IMG/VR virus record: IMGVR_UViG_3300029846_000275
From: a virus
Lineage: Duplodnaviria; Heunggongvirae; Uroviricota; Caudoviricetes
Reading direction: 5' to 3' (one strand)
Length of the DNA stretch: 13,368 nucleotides
Part shown: piece by piece, positions 8,569 through 13,368 of the stretch
Numbering within the stretch: the stretch's first letter is position 1
Layout of the letters: each line of letters begins with the position of its first letter
Notes under the pieces: generated by a model
Databases searched by the model: none
Seen by the model: only the letters and a program-made list of their open reading frames with translations
What the model was told of the DNA's origin: nothing
Position numbers and translations under genes: made by a program

Positions 8569-8758
8569 TTTGTCGCTCCATGCGTTTGCTCGTCATCTAG
8601 CGGTTAAAATATTACTTCAAATCTTTCTGCATAAAAGAGGAAAAGTATGAAAGTTTGAGTACATCGACCTTACATACATCTGTCGGTTGCATATCCCTCC
8701 TGGATGCCAGCAAGGCTCAACTTTGTTACGCAATCAACACTATTCATTAAAAACAGGC

Positions 8759-8878
8759 TTAATATTTGACTGTTTTAGCTTCCAGTTGCCGTAACGTCTC
8801 ACGACCACTCTGGCGCACGAGTTCCACCACCTGCCCTTTAATTTTTTCCCGCTCTTCTTGTGTAAAAACTTTTGCCAC
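8759..8878 (-). CDS. Hypothetical small protein (39 aa), GTG start
   Basis: Strong SD (AAGGGGGA) 4-5 nt before GTG at 8878; product VAKVFTQEEREKIKGQVVELVRQSGRETLRQLEAKTVKY; lies 40 nt downstream of the rep stop. Confidence 0.3.
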   Translation of the reverse strand: MAKVFTQEEREKIKGQVVELVRQSGRETLRQLEAKTVKY

Positions 8879-8918
8879 AAGTCCCCCTTAAAATTACCTC
8901 ATGACCTGAAATCAAAAC

Positions 8919-9884
8919 TTATCCTCTGAAACCAGGCGGAATTTCTGTATCCGGTTCAGAAATATGATTCACACAACGCTGTACAGGTGAACGTCCCAGG
9001 CGGATGACCAGTTCGTCCCATTTTTCGCGGAGTTTTGACGGGCTCATGATGTTTTTTACCCAGAATGGATCCCGCTGTACCCGACCAAACATTTCGCAAA
9101 TTTGTCTGTGGCTTCTGCCATCCAGCATCCGCATTGTGCGCACGTCATTGGCCCAGGCTGTCCAGTTAGGCTCTTTTGGTCGCATGATCTCTCCATCGTC
9201 GCTGGCAGCCTGTTCGTAAAGGTTCACGATCCGCCCCCAAATCCACTGCGCACACGCCAAATCCTCCCTGCTACCCCACTGGCGTTTTTTCACACTAAAC
9301 ACAACCGCGTCGGGGTTCCGGGTTAAAAAATCCTGTTCAGTCGTCTGCGGGTCCGGTTGCGAAGCTTCCGGACGAAAAGTGTTTTTATTCTCTGTAGTAA
9401 TCTCTGTTGTATTCTCTGTAAGATCATCAGGCCATTTTGACCCGATGACATTGGGTCGTTTTGAACCAATGGAGCGTTTCATTTTGACCTCTTCCATCGT
9501 GTCATTTTGACCTGATGGAGCGGCGCATTTTGAACCGATGGATTCGTTCAATTTGCCACCATCTAAAAGCTCGCTCCCATAGTTGATCGTGTAGAAATTG
9601 GTCATATCGCGCTTTGATTTATTGAGCTTTTCACAACGCAAAAGCCCCAGCGTTTTCAGACTTGCAAACGCGCGCTTTAACGTTGACTCTGACCAGAATG
9701 GGAACTGTTCCAGCCATTGTTCCGTTGTGTTATAAATCCAGCGAACACCATCACATTCCATACCGGAGTTGGTATCTCTCAACCAGTAGTGCAGTTGTTG
9801 CAAAACAATGGCTTCGTTTAAGCCGATTTTCATTGCCAGCTGCGTGTTTATAACCAGTGGGCGTTCAGCAAAAAGAAGACTCAT
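8919..9884 (-). CDS. Lambdoid O-type replication initiator; the origin iterons lie inside its coding sequence
   Basis: N-terminal HTH-like region; internal repeated IGSK peptide motif encoded by six DNA iterons; position downstream of the cro/cII-like genes; start taken as ATG 9884 (the ORF track uses an upstream TTG at 9938). Confidence 0.75.
   Translation of the reverse strand: MSLLFAERPLVINTQLAMKIGLNEAIVLQQLHYWLRDTNSGMECDGVRWIYNTTEQWLEQFPFWSESTLKRAFASLKTLGLLRCEKLNKSKRDMTNFYTINYGSELLDGGKLNESIGSKCAAPSGQNDTMEEVKMKRSIGSKRPNVIGSKWPDDLTENTTEITTENKNTFRPEASQPDPQTTEQDFLTRNPDAVVFSVKKRQWGSREDLACAQWIWGRIVNLYEQAASDDGEIMRPKEPNWTAWANDVRTMRMLDGRSHRQICEMFGRVQRDPFWVKNIMSPSKLREKWDELVIRLGRSPVQRCVNHISEPDTEIPPGFRG
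9387..9421. repeat. Three ~12-bp A/T-rich direct repeats (ATTCTCTGTAG-like) flanking the iterons; candidate origin unwinding region
   Basis: ATTCTCTGTAG / AATCTCTGTTG / ATTCTCTGTAA immediately downstream of the iterons in the direction of rep transcription, as in the lambda ori layout. Confidence 0.6.
9433..9564. repeat. Replication-origin iterons: six direct repeats of ~20-22 bp at ~23-bp spacing, consensus cATTTTGAcC-GATGGAGCG
   Basis: Copies start near 9433, 9457, 9480, 9503, 9526 and 9549 (the last is degenerate: CAATTTGCCACCATCT); all lie within the rep CDS. Confidence 0.8.
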
Positions 9885-10386
9885 AATTCCATCCAGCTTT
9901 TTGTTGGTATTGCTGTCGATACGCAAGCTTGAAAGCAATTGCTTTTTCTATAAGTTCGTCAGTTTCACGATCTACAACGGCAGGATCTGCAAAAAGCAGT
10001 CCAGATTCCACCACATCGCCATATTCTTTATTTAACCCGGCGATCATGTACGTAATACTTTTTCCATCACTGATCTCACGATACAACCTGAAATCACTAA
10101 TCCGGATAGCCTCCATAATTGCAGGCACTAGCGCTGTGAACTTTTCACGCTTATCCCTGGTGTCGATAGCCTTCCAGCGTTCGAATATCTTCACTCGATT
10201 AACGCTAAGCGCTCGCTGATCAACCGCGCCACCTTCATATGTGACACGCTGAACATCGATGTTCGGGCGCTCTTTCAAAGCCCAGAATGCTTCAGTGATT
10301 AATATCGTCGCCTGCTCCTGTGTCATTCCTGGTCGACATATCCAGGCATCCAGAGCCTCACGAGCCTGTTCAGGAGTGATTTTCAT
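9865..10386 (-). CDS. cII-position ORF (173 aa); possibly YdaT-like
   Basis: ATG at 10386 overlaps the end of the dicC-like gene by 17 nt; the motif KREKFTALVPAIMEAI resembles my recollection of YdaT (REKIQKLIPAIL); family assignment is tentative. Confidence 0.5.
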   Translation of the reverse strand: MKITPEQAREALDAWICRPGMTQEQATILITEAFWALKERPNIDVQRVTYEGGAVDQRALSVNRVKIFERWKAIDTRDKREKFTALVPAIMEAIRISDFRLYREISDGKSITYMIAGLNKEYGDVVESGLLFADPAVVDRETDELIEKAIAFKLAYRQQYQQKAGWNYESSFC

Positions 10387-10597
10387 TGTTCAACCGCCCC
10401 GCCCGCTTCGTCTTACGATATTCGTCATAAACTTTGGGATCATACTGAAGCTCCCCGCCAGATGCCTCCTGTAGACGCATCGCGCGACCTTCAGGAACCA
10501 GTATCCCCCAAGCAGCAACACTTGCCAGTCTCACTCCTGCGGCATTGGCAAGCTTTGTTTTGCTGCCAAAAAAAGTAATTGCGTCAACTTTAAGCAT
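10370..10597 (-). CDS. dicC: Cro-like small HTH regulator, DicC-like (75 aa from the ATG)
   Basis: Divergent from the dicA-like gene; GAGGGGG SD 6 nt upstream of ATG 10597 (the ORF track begins at TTG 10600); HTH segment TKLANAAGVRLASVAAW. Confidence 0.65.
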   Translation of the reverse strand: MLKVDAITFFGSKTKLANAAGVRLASVAAWGILVPEGRAMRLQEASGGELQYDPKVYDEYRKTKRAGRLNNENHS

Positions 10598-10610
10598 CAA
10601 AGCCCCCTCT

Positions 10611-10628
10611 TGTTAGATTTTTCTAACA
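10611..10628. promoter_or_regulatory. Candidate repressor operator: perfect inverted repeat TGTTAGA-N4-TCTAACA in the dicC/dicA divergent intergenic region
   Basis: TGTTAGATTTTTCTAACA; the same 7-bp half-sites recur downstream of dicA. Confidence 0.6.
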
Positions 10629-10677
10629 TTATTGTGCGCGGGATACCTAAGTCAAGAAAAATTAGAATTACCTAACT

Positions 10678-11085
10678 ATGGATACAAGAACCCTAGGCCA
10701 GCGAGTTCTGGCGCGACGAAAAGAATTACGCTTAACACAACGAGAAGCTGCGCGCCTCGCTGGAGTTGCTCACGTCACAATTTCACAATGGGAAAGAGAC
10801 GAAACCCAGCCAGTCGGAAAACGATTGTTTGCTTTAGCGGATGCTCTGAAGTGCTCACCTACATGGCTAATGTTTGGTGACGAAGACAAGGCACCAGTGC
10901 CTGCACAAGAACTTCATGTGGAAACAGAGCTAACTCCCAACCACAAAGAATTGATCGAATTATTCGATGCTCTTCCATCTTCCGAGCAGGAAGCCTTGCT
11001 GTCTGAAATGCGCGCAAGAGTAGAAAACTTCAACAAACTCTTCGAAGAAATGCTTAAAGCGCGTAAAAATAAATCAATAAAATAA
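10678..11085 (+). CDS. dicA: DicA-family XRE/CI-type repressor (135 aa)
   Basis: 135 aa with N-terminal HTH (LTQREAARLAGVAHVTISQWERDETQP) and the motifs CSPTW and EMRARVxNFNKLFEE that I recall from DicA; no SD before the ATG (possibly leaderless). Confidence 0.8.
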   Translation: MDTRTLGQRVLARRKELRLTQREAARLAGVAHVTISQWERDETQPVGKRLFALADALKCSPTWLMFGDEDKAPVPAQELHVETELTPNHKELIELFDALPSSEQEALLSEMRARVENFNKLFEEMLKARKNKSIK

Positions 11086-11121
11086 CATTCTTTTCAAGTG
11101 ATTAGTTGCGCCCACTCTTTT

Positions 11122-11139
11122 TGTTAGACCAATCTAACA
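11122..11139. promoter_or_regulatory. Candidate operator in the dicB-operon promoter region: TGTTAGA-N4-TCTAACA
   Basis: TGTTAGACCAATCTAACA, a perfect 7-bp inverted repeat identical in half-sites to the one at 10611..10628. Confidence 0.6.
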
Positions 11140-11157
11140 AAAAACACTTGCCTCTCA

Positions 11158-11174
11158 TGTTAGGTTATTCTAAA
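11158..11174. promoter_or_regulatory. Third, imperfect operator-like site (TGTTAGG-N4-TCTAAAT)
   Basis: About 36 bp downstream of the operator at 11122; left half-site conserved, right half-site degenerate. Confidence 0.35.
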
Positions 11175-11253
11175 TTACTTTCCATCAAGACACCGCACGG
11201 TGTTCTCAGCAAGCAGTTCCGCTACCCCGGCGTTAAGGGGAAATGAGGTCAGC

Positions 11254-11406
11254 ATGGATACTATCGATCTTGGCAACAGCGAATCTCTGGTATGTGGCGT
11301 GTTCCCCAACCAGGACGGTACGTTCACCGCGATGACATATACCAAAAGCAAAACGTTTAAAACCGAATCTGGCGCGCGTTGCTGGTTAGCCAGAAACACT
11401 GACTGA
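11254..11406 (+). CDS. ydfA: Small protein (50 aa), YdfA-like; first gene of the dicB operon
   Basis: ATG at 11254 with GAGG 5 nt upstream; stop overlaps the next start (TGATG); position matches ydfA of the K-12 dicB operon by synteny. Confidence 0.55.
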   Translation: MDTIDLGNSESLVCGVFPNQDGTFTAMTYTKSKTFKTESGARCWLARNTD

Positions 11407-11417
11407 TGAGGCTGACG

Positions 11418-11783
11418 ATGGAATTTAAAGATTTACCGTCTGATGTACAGAAAACAGCAGCTCATACATTGCATTCTGTGCTGCGAGAAATCGGGAAAGA
11501 TATTGCAAGCGAGCCAGCAAAAGATCTGGCCCGGAAAATCAAGACCGCTTTCGTTGAGCTTTATAATGTTGGCACTGACTCTGAAACTGTCGAGACCAAG
11601 ACCGTAAGTTCACCAATATTCTCACTTGAGCCAGGCGTATTATCAGGTGAAATATGCACCGAGATTTCCAGCGAACTGCTTCCGGTAATACGAGAAGCAA
11701 TTTGCCGTCGCGGTTTGGATGGAAGTTACGATCATGACGTCCTGCAAGTTCTCAGGACAATGGTGACTTCACTGGGGATTTGA
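11418..11783 (+). CDS. Hypothetical protein (121 aa) in the position of ydfB/ydfC of the dicB operon
   Basis: ATG at 11418 with GAGG 7 nt upstream (the ORF track begins at ATG 11406); same strand as ydfA and dicB. Confidence 0.55.
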   Translation: MEFKDLPSDVQKTAAHTLHSVLREIGKDIASEPAKDLARKIKTAFVELYNVGTDSETVETKTVSSPIFSLEPGVLSGEICTEISSELLPVIREAICRRGLDGSYDHDVLQVLRTMVTSLGI

Positions 11784-11952
11784 TCCCTGCGTCCTCTAAC
11801 CTTTTGATATAGCGGTCCTCCAAGAAGCGGTAAATTTTGTCGAAATCATCTTTCCCCTCTGGTTTATTCAGAGGATTACAGGACCCGTAAGTAGCGGCAT
11901 ACATTTCAACCGTTTTATCAAAAATATAAGAGACAAATTCTTCTTTAGTCAT
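11752..11952 (-). CDS. Candidate antisense-oriented small protein (66 aa) inside the dicB operon
   Basis: ATG at 11952 with AAGGAA 8 nt upstream; product MTKEEFVSYIFDKTVEMYAATYGSCNPLNKPEGKDDFDKIYRFLEDRYIKRLEDAGIK... is non-repetitive; 3' end overlaps the 121-aa ORF by about 30 nt. Confidence 0.35.
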   Translation of the reverse strand: MTKEEFVSYIFDKTVEMYAATYGSCNPLNKPEGKDDFDKIYRFLEDRYIKRLEDAGIKSPVKSPLS

Positions 11953-12227
11953 ATAGATTTCCTTCTTGGTTATTCGGGATAAGAAGGATACCACCTCGCC
12001 TGACGTGGTTAAAAGCAGGCACACAACACGAAAGCGCACGGCGAAGTTCGTCTCACTGTACGGTGTCGTTAAATTTAATTCGACCGTGCGCTTCCGGTTG
12101 TGGCAACCCGCGAAATGGCGCGGCGGTAAGTATGGCGGGGTTATTCCTTCCCCGTTGAGGACACCGAGTTGTCAGGTTGACCATACGCTTAAGTGACAAC
12201 CCCGCTGCAACGCCCTCTGTTATCAAT

Positions 12228-12280
12228 TTTCTGGTGACGTTTGGCGGTATCAGTTTTACTCCGTGACTGCTCTGCCGCCG
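12228..12280 (+). ncRNA. dicF: DicF small regulatory RNA (~53 nt)
   Basis: TTTCTGGTGACGTTTGGCGGTATCAGTTTTACTCCGTGACTGCTCTGCCGCC followed by a T-run matches my recollection of DicF; lies between the ydfA-C region and dicB as expected. Confidence 0.85.
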
Positions 12281-12448
12281 TTTTTAAAGTGAATTTTGTG
12301 ATGCGGTGAATGCGGCTAAGCGCACGCGGAACAGTTAAAACCAGTGTTATGGGTGGATTCTCTGTATCCGGCGTTAATTGTTAACTGGTTAACGTCACCT
12401 GGAGGCACCAGGCACTGCATCACAAAATTCATTGTTGAGGACGCGATA

Positions 12449-12637
12449 ATGAAAACGTTATTACCAAACGTTAATACGTCTGAAGGTTGTTTTGAAATTG
12501 GTGTCACTATCAGTAACCCTGTATTTACTGAAGATGCCATTAACAAGAGAAAACAAGAACGGGAGCTATTAAATAAAATATGCATTATTTCAATGCTGGC
12601 TCGTTTACGTCTGATGCCAAAAGGATGTGCACAATGA
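12449..12637 (+). CDS. dicB: Cell-division inhibitor DicB (62 aa)
   Basis: Product MKTLLPNVNTSEGCFEIGVTISNPVFTEDAINKRKQERELLNKICIISMLARLRLMPKGCAQ; GAGGA about 8 nt upstream; the ORF track extends it to an upstream start at 12344. Confidence 0.9.
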   Translation: MKTLLPNVNTSEGCFEIGVTISNPVFTEDAINKRKQERELLNKICIISMLARLRLMPKGCAQ

Positions 12638-12825
12638 ATTCAGCATTTGCGCTTGTTCTGACAGTTTTTCTTGTTTCCGGAGAGCCAGTTGATATTGCAG
12701 TCAGTGTTCACAGGACAATGCAGGAGTGTATGACTGCAGCAACCGAACAGAAAATTCCCGGTAACTGTTACCCGGTCGATAAAGTTATTCACCAGGATAA
12801 TATCGAAATCCCGGCAGGTCTTTAA
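12634..12825 (+). CDS. ydfD: YdfD lysis protein (63 aa), start overlapping the dicB stop (ATGA)
   Basis: Product MNSAFALVLTVFLVSGEPVDIAVSVHRTMQECMTAATEQKIPGNCYPVDKVIHQDNIEIPAGL with an N-terminal hydrophobic helix. Confidence 0.85.
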   Translation: MNSAFALVLTVFLVSGEPVDIAVSVHRTMQECMTAATEQKIPGNCYPVDKVIHQDNIEIPAGL

Positions 12826-12918
12826 AACAGTTCCGTAATAAATATCCGGTTTCATTCTTATATGCCAGCAATGGCAGGGATTTGTTCATCCTTAAATCTG
12901 TCATGAGGTTAAAACAAA

Positions 12919-13368
12919 ATGAGTAAAGTCTTTATTTGCGCCGCTATTCCTGACGAACTGGCAACAAGGGAAGAAGGCGCTGTGGCTGTAGCCACAGCCA
13001 TTGAAGCTGGCGACGAACGCCGTGCTCGAGCAAAATTTCACTGGCAGTTCCTGGAACATTATCCGGCTGCTCAGGACTGCGCTTATAAATTTATTGTCTG
13101 CGAGGATAAACCTGGCATACCCCGCCCTGCCCTCGATTCATGGGATGCTGAATATATGCAGGAAAACCGCTGGGATGAGGAGTCTGCTTCTTTTGTCCCG
13201 GTTGAGACTGAATCCGATCCGATGAACGTCACTTTTGACAAGCTGGCCCCTGAAGTACAGAACGCTGTCATGGTTAAGTTCGACACATGTGAAAACATCA
13301 CCGTTGATATGGTTATTAGCGCACAGGAATTGTTGCAGGAAGACATGGCAACATTCGACGGACATATC
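12919..13368 (+). CDS. ydfE: YdfE-like hypothetical protein, partial; reading frame still open at the window end
   Basis: ATG at 12919 with GAGG about 9 nt upstream; 150 codons without a stop to the last base; not in the ORF track because no stop is reached; symbol by synteny only. Confidence 0.5.
   Translation, partial: MSKVFICAAIPDELATREEGAVAVATAIEAGDERRARAKFHWQFLEHYPAAQDCAYKFIVCEDKPGIPRPALDSWDAEYMQENRWDEESASFVPVETESDPMNVTFDKLAPEVQNAVMVKFDTCENITVDMVISAQELLQEDMATFDGHI

Follow-up and report, generated by a model that had tools for sequence, protein, structure and literature searches.

Background

It is textbook knowledge that lambdoid prophages decay by deletion and exchange modules. Among the closest described systems, the dicBF locus occurs in several prophage contexts (PMC5069750); in Escherichia coli K-12, DicA represses dicCp and dicBp and the antirepressor Rem relieves this repression, and the phage mEp460_evo81 (mEp460_ev081 in record LR597641.1) is functional and carries dicAC, dicBF and rem (PMC10448788). 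Tritos, a plaque-forming, active siphophage of strain LF82 that lies near Ev081, is spontaneously induced and has been imaged (PMC9928086). Here we describe a 13,368-nt stretch of viral DNA (IMG/VR record IMGVR_UViG_3300029846_000275; the whole stretch is hereafter the window), which is very probably what three deletions have left of a phage of the Tritos/mEp460_ev081 type at the site of the cryptic prophage Qin, with an exchanged repressor cassette. The case is one of ordinary prophage decay and mosaicism, and the element is of a familiar kind: functional relatives of Qin have been described before, and only this combination of joints and the base-level account of them are new.

The window was compared with 5,426 complete E. 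coli genomes, GTDB representatives and public contigs, and the PGAP annotation of near-identical genomes was used alongside. The Qin prophage of MG1655 (NC_000913.3 1632277-1652745) served as the K-12 reference in blastn and tblastn comparisons.

Comparison with K-12 Qin and with active phages

Several features place the window at the Qin site: the ydfJ boundary is as in K-12, two contigs that share its most distinctive junction (joint C, below; contigs L006 and L007) run int-rspB-rspA, and the dicA/dicC immunity locus and the dicBF operon (ydfA, DicF, dicB, ydfD) are both present. Counterparts in K-12 Qin cover positions 1-4064 (98.5%), where the insertion site, the ydfJ' boundary, ynfT, ydfK, pinQ, tfaQ and the 3' end of stfQ are collinear; 10107-10690 (ydfX and dicC, 86.5% overall, with the ydfX segment and the C-terminal half of dicC at 97-100%); 10967-11397 (78%); and 12011-13368 (97.4%), with the dicF-dicB-ydfD-ydfE arm at 97-100%. 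Between these, blastn finds no K-12 Qin counterpart for 4065-10106, which bears out the claim, made in an earlier sequence-only reading of this DNA, that its architecture departs from that of K-12 Qin. The same reading had described K-12 as having some twenty genes between dicC and the Nu1 homologue and no tail genes H, M or L, and this holds: 26 annotated coding sequences run from nohA to dicC, and H, M and L are absent. The gene content of that K-12 interval (csp genes, lysis cassette, Q, ydfU, rem, hokD, relBE and flxA) has no blastn or tblastn match in the window; the deletion at joint C took the interval. Conversely, K-12 lacks O, the 3' half of ydaT, L, M and H, whereas the window has O, a full-length YdaT gene, L, M and a truncated H; NohA is of the lambda Nu1 type in K-12, whereas the window retains a fragment of the DUF1441 type; and ydfB and ydfC are replaced.

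Tritos (OV696610.1), a prophage of the adherent-invasive E. coli (AIEC) strain LF82, shares its gene order with the window throughout, including an identical TerS N-terminus and identical cos ends. The segments 1273-3416, 4463-7574, 7560-7993, 7994-8770 and 12011-13368 match at 97.4-98.7%, the divergent-module segments 8770-8981 and 11216-11397 at 90-92%, and the Tritos integrase is 99% identical to that of the sister contigs, that is, the contigs sharing joint C. Unlike the window, Tritos is complete at 46.4 kb and has its own repressor/Cro pair, its own initiator and other tail-fibre ends. In mEp460_ev081 and in the prophage of strain EC93 the closest likeness lies elsewhere, in the 5' end of the DUF977 gene, O, ydaT and the 3' half of dicC (97.4% for mEp460_ev081, 99.7% for EC93) and in the arm from ydfA to exo (97%); the EC93 prophage occupies the same ydfJ/rspB site. 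Both are full length and lack joints A, B and C. Lambda, at a greater distance, shares the overall map, the right-end DNA, the L-M-H 3' region (80.5%), the tfa/stf 3' end (93%), the C-terminal domain of O, the intragenic layout of the origin and the cosN context; it differs in that its Nu1, cII, cI and cro have no sequence similarity here, in iteron sequence, in the N-terminal domain of O, and in having P after O where phages of the window's type have a DUF977 gene.

Three deletion joints

Relative to a Tritos-type genome, the window lacks about 29-30 kb, with terL, portal, capsid, V, J, Q, holin and endolysin gone. Joint A (4463-4467, stf'/K') is a 5-bp overlap at which 7,146 bp are missing relative to strain ST866, comprising the 5' part of stf, lom, J, I and most of K; only 2-3 of the 5,426 complete genomes have it. 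Joint B (7569-7574, H'/terS') falls on the microhomology CCATAC, and 10,391 bp are missing there relative to the prophage of strain 382634_2f, or 10,404 bp relative to Tritos: the 5' part of H, T, G, V, U, Z, the head genes, portal, terL and the 3' part of terS. Just two complete genomes share it. Joint C (position 8770, right-end DNA/DUF977') is a 1-bp overlap with a loss of ~11.8 kb relative to 382634_2f or ~12.3 kb relative to Tritos, which removed ydfO, gnsB, ynfN, cspI, the Rz/R/S-type lysis genes, cspB, cspF, Q, ydfU, rem or its neighbours, hokD, accessory genes and the 3' two thirds of the DUF977 gene. This exact joint, and the 39-codon DUF977 stub at 8759-8878 (minus strand) that it creates, go beyond the earlier reading.

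The third joint sets the window apart from every complete genome. It is absent from all 5,426, in none of which does a single place account for more than 66% of the window, and the window splits exactly at 8770: positions 1-8770 are 99.97% identical to strains 14EC033 and 100416, and 8770-13368 are 99.7% identical to the full-length Qin-site prophage of EC93, this second part being at least 80% covered in 181 genomes. The earlier reading had staked its case on the region not aligning collinearly with K-12 Qin or another well-described prophage, and no complete genome or phage record was found to be collinear across 8770. A 47-nt string across the joint had 0 exact matches among the GTDB representatives, a collection of one genome per species and so uninformative on this point. 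On public contigs, by contrast with the complete genomes, the 39-amino-acid product of joint C (MAKVF...EAKTVKY) was found on at least 24 (35 index blocks), among them those of an NCBI draft genome and of several ENA metagenome assemblies. Their order is rspA-rspB-int-xis-exo-ydfD-dicB-...-dicA-dicC-ydaT-O-DUF977'-orf68-terS'::H'-M-L-stf'-tfa-pin-ydfK-ydfJ-ydfI, and one of them (L008) matches all 13,368 bases of the window with 0 mismatches and one 6-nt indel at ~12344. Joint C is thus natural and lineage-specific.

One contig, L010 (ERZ651904 NODE_2708; positions 1-2817), is 100% identical to window 3898-11940, after which LicD and Caps_synth genes follow in place of dicF and dicB. This points either to a chimera in the metagenome assembly or to one more rearrangement.

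Probable decay of a Tritos-type prophage

Taken together, these comparisons make it very probable that the window holds three quarters, on the side of ydfJ, of a defective lambdoid prophage about 16 kb long, whose ancestor would have been a temperate siphophage of ~46 kb of the Tritos/mEp460_ev081 type. The gene order of that ancestor would have run cos-terS-terL-head-tail-stf-pin, then int-xis-exo-ydfD-dicB-dicF-...-dicA/dicC-ydaT-O-DUF977-accessory-rem/hokD-ydfU-Q-csp-lysis-csp-gnsB-ydfO-right end-cos. The three deletions would each have arisen by illegitimate recombination, at microhomologies of 5, 6 and 1 bp for A, B and C respectively. Deletions A and B, common to 14EC033 and 100416, would be the older, and C specific to the window's lineage. 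In those two sister genomes the third lesion is a different one, an IS3-family element in Q, from which the loss extends as far as int in 14EC033 and beyond int in 100416; that lineage would thus have lost its int-proximal arm instead. Stepwise, independent decay from a common ancestor that already had A and B fits this distribution.

The case for decay rests on content as much as on joints. All retained segments stand in Tritos order, with 97.9-98.7% identity outside the two short divergent-module segments; the full-length 382634_2f prophage, at the same locus, shows the content missing at B and C, and ST866 that missing at A; and each side of every joint is at least 98% identical to known phages or prophages. 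No head gene is left, and the terminase, Q, the lysis cassette and most of the tail genes are missing too; to judge from this gene content, the element would be unable to make virions or to lyse the cell. Some points weigh against this account. The exact undeleted progenitor occurs in no single sequenced genome, and even the best available references are related to it only as mosaics: the repressor and O differ in Tritos and 382634_2f, and the cos/terS region differs in EC93, so the sizes given for the deletions depend on the reference chosen. We infer the order of events from only two sister genomes, and an incoming phage could formally have taken part in the illegitimate recombination that made joint C, in place of an event confined to a single resident prophage. 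The EC93 prophage was also considered as sole progenitor and rejected, since its cos/terS region matches over only 225 bp at 83% and it has no lambda-type right end.

That last point against decay can be put as an explanation of its own, in which a decayed Qin remnant with a right arm like that of 14EC033 recombined with a superinfecting or co-resident phage of the mEp460/EC93 type, which supplied the arm O-ydaT-dicC-dicA-dicB-int. The best relatives of the two arms do differ (14EC033 up to 8770, EC93 beyond it), recombination among lambdoid phages is free and hybrid phages have been reported (PMC9928086). Yet both arms stand in the order and orientation expected of one prophage at one site, and a 1-bp joint within a gene is the product of a simple deletion; nor do the sister genomes help, lacking the second arm only through the loss associated with the IS3-family element, which says nothing of its origin. 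We regard such an exchange as improbable, and it would in any case give the same end product with the same properties. That the junction at 8770 is instead an artefact of assembly or binning, uniting two prophage fragments, might be suspected from its absence from the complete genomes and the GTDB representatives, but is next to incredible given that independent ENA assemblies and an NCBI draft together supply at least 24 contigs in which the junction-spanning product recurs, all in the same flanking order and with 99.7-100% identity to the window.

An explanation of another sort would make the remnant a selected, functional minimal element, akin to a satellite or a defence element, that hitchhikes on helpers of the Tritos type or interferes with them. 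The cos site, the iterons of the origin, an intact O, intact dicA and dicC and an in-frame TerS'::H' reading frame have outlasted three separate deletions, and the element, at an estimated ~15.7 kb, is about a third as long as the Tritos genome of 46.4 kb. Against this, the element has no functional integrase of its own if the sister contigs are a guide, theirs being cut short at codon 353 of 426; O is followed by a truncated gene; the joints resemble random microhomology deletions; the sister lineages lost different parts; and L, M and tail-fibre fragments have been kept with no conceivable role in a satellite. Selection for such a role is accordingly extremely improbable. Very improbable too is the more specific proposal that cos, O with its origin and the fusion of the DNA-binding N-terminal part of TerS to H' permit packaging by phages of the Tritos/Ev081 type (for example as concatemers of ~3 x 16 kb) or interference with it; if it were true, the loss of rem would lock DicB/DicF, a phage-defence and cell-division cassette, under DicA.

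Decay of a Tritos-type prophage being the preferred account, the significance that the earlier reading implied for this architecture needs tempering, as plain deletions and a standard lambdoid module swap explain it. The locus is of use nonetheless as a worked example, in which K-12 Qin, the window and the 14EC033-type remnant are different deletion derivatives, at one site, of one phage family that is still active, with deletion joints mapped to the base and a repressor cassette that has at least three alleles between fixed borders.

An exchanged repressor cassette

The dicC gene (Cro-like; 10370-10597, minus strand) scores 165.7 bits against NCBIfam DicC (cutoff 130) and matches Pfam P22_Cro; its product is 85.5% identical in amino acid sequence to that of K-12, with all differences in the N-terminal 31 residues. 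Beyond it, the dicA repressor gene (10678-11085, plus strand; NCBIfam DicA 224.7 bits, cutoff 101) is a divergent allele whose product is 56.8% identical to K-12 DicA and 52% identical to that of mEp460_ev081, as against 98.4% with K-12 for both dicB and ydfD; the suspicion voiced in the earlier reading, that DicA had diverged more than these two and that the immunity region was mosaic, was sound on both counts. In an identity plot against K-12 (100-nt sliding window), identity stands at 97-100% over 10107-10480, drops to 45-70% at ~10480-11170, which takes in the helix-turn-helix part of dicC, the operators between dicC and dicA and all of dicA, and recovers to 86-96% over 11170-11390; the sequence is then unrelated over 11390-12040 and 98-100% identical over 12040-13368. 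The same borders appear against mEp460_ev081, which matches the window at 97% on either side but not between 10501 and 11170.

Three DicA alleles, those of the window, K-12 and mEp460_ev081, therefore lie, at 52-57% identity, between flanks that are 97-100% identical; the allele of EC93 is identical to that of the window, and Tritos and 382634_2f have a fourth, far more distant repressor (28-30% identical to DicA). The pattern is that of classical lambdoid immunity-cassette exchange, as read from the alignments: the cassette would have been swapped independently of the deletions by homologous recombination in the conserved flanks at ~10480-10500 and ~11170. An operator-like palindrome, TGTTAG-N6-CTAACA (10611-10628), overlaps a promoter-like site for dicC (10655-10628, minus strand), and its half-sites are the same as those of the K-12 operator Oc (TGTTAGTCATAACTAACA) even though DicA is only 57% identical; an SQWER motif in the helix-turn-helix region is likewise conserved with K-12. 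Operator specificity may thus be unchanged relative to K-12 DicA, and because the half-sites are conserved we do not claim that this dicA allele confers heteroimmunity.

The dicBF arm and the loss of rem

On the far side of the cassette lie a ydfA-like gene (DUF1391; 11254-11406, plus strand), whose product is 87.8% identical in amino acid sequence to K-12 YdfA, and a 121-residue open reading frame (ORF) that replaces K-12 ydfB/ydfC (11418-11783, plus strand; phrog_33007) in a stretch unrelated to K-12. The DicF small RNA follows (12229-12280, plus strand; 72.5 bits in Rfam RF00039, where the gathering score is 48), then dicB (12449-12637, plus strand), ydfD (12634-12825, plus strand) and the 5' part of the ydfE/exonuclease gene (12919-13368, plus strand), which runs off the window. 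Between dicF and dicB, at ~12341-12344, the window is without 6 nt (AAAACC[AAAAAC]AG); the 6-nt gap appears at this spot in comparison with K-12 and with contigs L008, L009 and L011, and the single gap in the EC93 alignment is consistent with it.

In this arrangement DicA would keep dicC and the dicBF operon shut through the TGTTAG-N6-CTAACA operators. In EC93 and mEp460_ev081, rem is annotated inside the interval that the deletion at joint C removes, which would leave the dicBF operon without an inducer encoded in cis; with rem gone, the only known route for derepression of DicA-controlled promoters would be missing in cis. The locus thus offers a natural variant in which dicBF regulation can be viewed with DicA and dicBF present and the Rem antirepressor absent. 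On the int side, outside the window, the integrase genes of two sister contigs (L006 2066-3124 and L007 2057-3115) end prematurely at codon 353 of 426 when compared with those of EC93 and Tritos. The C-terminal catalytic region is thereby lost, and the element is probably fixed in place as well.

Replication module and the gene in the cII position

A gene for a lambda-O-type replication initiator of 321 amino acids (8919-9884, minus strand) matches phrog_391, 'replication initiation O-like', at E 2e-92. Over its C-terminal ~150 residues it shares 34% identity with the corresponding domain of lambda O (E 1e-27), its N-terminal half is unrelated to lambda O, and the whole is 98% identical to the protein of mEp460_ev081. 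Neither this protein nor the 121-residue ORF described above nor the 68-residue ORF described below had a Pfam or NCBIfam match, and for these PHROGs and direct comparison with lambda were used. A putative origin lies inside the initiator gene (9380-9563), where 5-6 iterons in a 23-24-nt phase, with the core GGTCAAAATG on the coding strand (9425-9563), adjoin a tract at 9380-9424 of 29% GC, where the surroundings have 47-57%. This succession, iterons and then an AT-rich tract, is the layout of the lambda origin, and it stands here at the equivalent place in the alignment of the O proteins.

Downstream of O, the DUF977' stub consists of 36-37 native codons, 3 new codons and a stop; gene finders call it as a 39-residue gene with a weak DUF977 match in contigs L006-L011. 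Whilst O and the origin look intact, autonomous replication of the element is doubtful, because the gene that follows O has been cut to these 39 codons.

The gene in the cII position (9865-10386, minus strand) encodes a YdaT-family protein of 173 residues, with matches to Pfam YdaT_toxin and to phrog_163, 'CII-like' (E 9e-41), and is intact in the window, EC93 and mEp460_ev081. K-12 ydfX (96 residues; 19347-19637 of the K-12 locus) is 97.8% identical to the first 93 residues of this protein; it corresponds to the 5' 93 codons of a YdaT gene, so K-12 Qin itself has a deletion endpoint there and is a separate deletion derivative of a phage of this kind. For annotation, ydfX of K-12 is best described as the 5' part of a YdaT-type gene.

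The cos region and the terS'::H' fusion

The earlier reading listed, from the dicC-like gene on, a cII-position ORF, an O-type initiator with origin, right-end DNA, cos and a block nu1'-H-M-L-K'. All of these are present at or near the positions it gave, with two corrections, namely that the terminase fragment is of the DUF1441 type, not the Nu1 type, and that H is truncated. The block terS'(nu1')-H'-M-L-K' spans 4467-7827 (minus strand). At its head stands a single in-frame ORF (5623-7827, minus strand; Pfam DUF1441, TMP_2, TMP_4 and Tape_meas_lam_C) in which the N-terminus of the small terminase (7575-7797/7827, ~74-84 codons) continues into the final ~650 codons of the tape-measure gene H (5623-7574). 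This chimera of 724-734 residues arose by deletion B and is reported as one protein by gene callers. Its 74 N-terminal residues are 100% identical to Tritos TerS, and its DUF1441 score is sub-threshold because only part of the domain is left. Lambda Nu1 and K-12 NohA share 98% identity, but neither has detectable similarity to this fragment, and a tblastn comparison with NohA finds nothing in the window; 'nu1' is thus a name by position only, and 'nohA-like' labels are wrong for this DNA.

A cosN-like cohesive-end sequence, GGGCGGGAGCGT, lies at 7982-7993 (minus strand), and the ends of the virion genome meet between 7993 and 7994: the Tritos record opens with the 12 bases GGGCGGGAGCGT and closes with ...CCTGCCACG, and these two ends adjoin at that point. 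This 12-mer resembles GGGCGGCGACCT of lambda cosN, and the surrounding sequence aligns with it as ACG/GGGCGGCGACCT/CGCGG, the lambda context being ACGGGGCGG...TCGCGG. Lambda right-end-type DNA follows at 8216-8770 (minus strand), preceded by a non-coding stretch and 87% identical to lambda 48090-47552. Within it, an ORF of 68 residues (8362-8568, minus strand) is 91% identical to lambdap79 and matches phrog_657. Between cos and this homologue, a 55-residue ORF on the plus strand (8174-8341) matches phrog_4035, a family with no assigned function, over its full length (E 1e-40), and is also called by gene finders in sister contigs.

Host boundary and tail side

The window opens within the host gene cut by the prophage insertion, ydfJ' (1-1284, minus strand), as annotated by PGAP in the identical DNA of 14EC033; it marks the boundary of the Qin site. 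After ynfT and ydfK come the invertase gene pinQ (2618-3208, plus strand; 98.5% amino acid identity to K-12 PinQ) and the tail fibre assembly gene tfaQ (3306-3881, minus strand; 97.4% identity to K-12 TfaQ). The remains of the side tail fibre gene, stf' (3881-4468, minus strand), keep its C-terminal ~196 codons and are annotated as a pseudogene. They align with ST866 stf at 4881-5064 and 5675-6079, so that at window 4063-4065 a further 612 bp (204 codons, in frame) are gone relative to ST866. This gap coincides exactly with the end of collinearity with K-12 stfQ and could be a boundary between tail-fibre modules or the trace of a Pin-mediated rearrangement; an inverted-repeat scan for Pin crossover sites at the 4064 boundary returned nothing convincing, only weak pairs of 14-20 nt. 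Beyond joint A, K' (4467-4580, minus strand) retains the first ~38 codons of the C40-peptidase tail gene K, and the genes for minor tail proteins L (4586-5284, minus strand; Pfam Phage_tail_L, E 5e-99) and M (5294-5623, minus strand; Pfam Phage_min_tail, E 5e-39) are intact. Lastly, the coding region of tfaQ holds, at 3340-3538 on the minus strand, a full-length match to the Rfam family IS009 (RF02111; 226.8 bits, gathering score 117).

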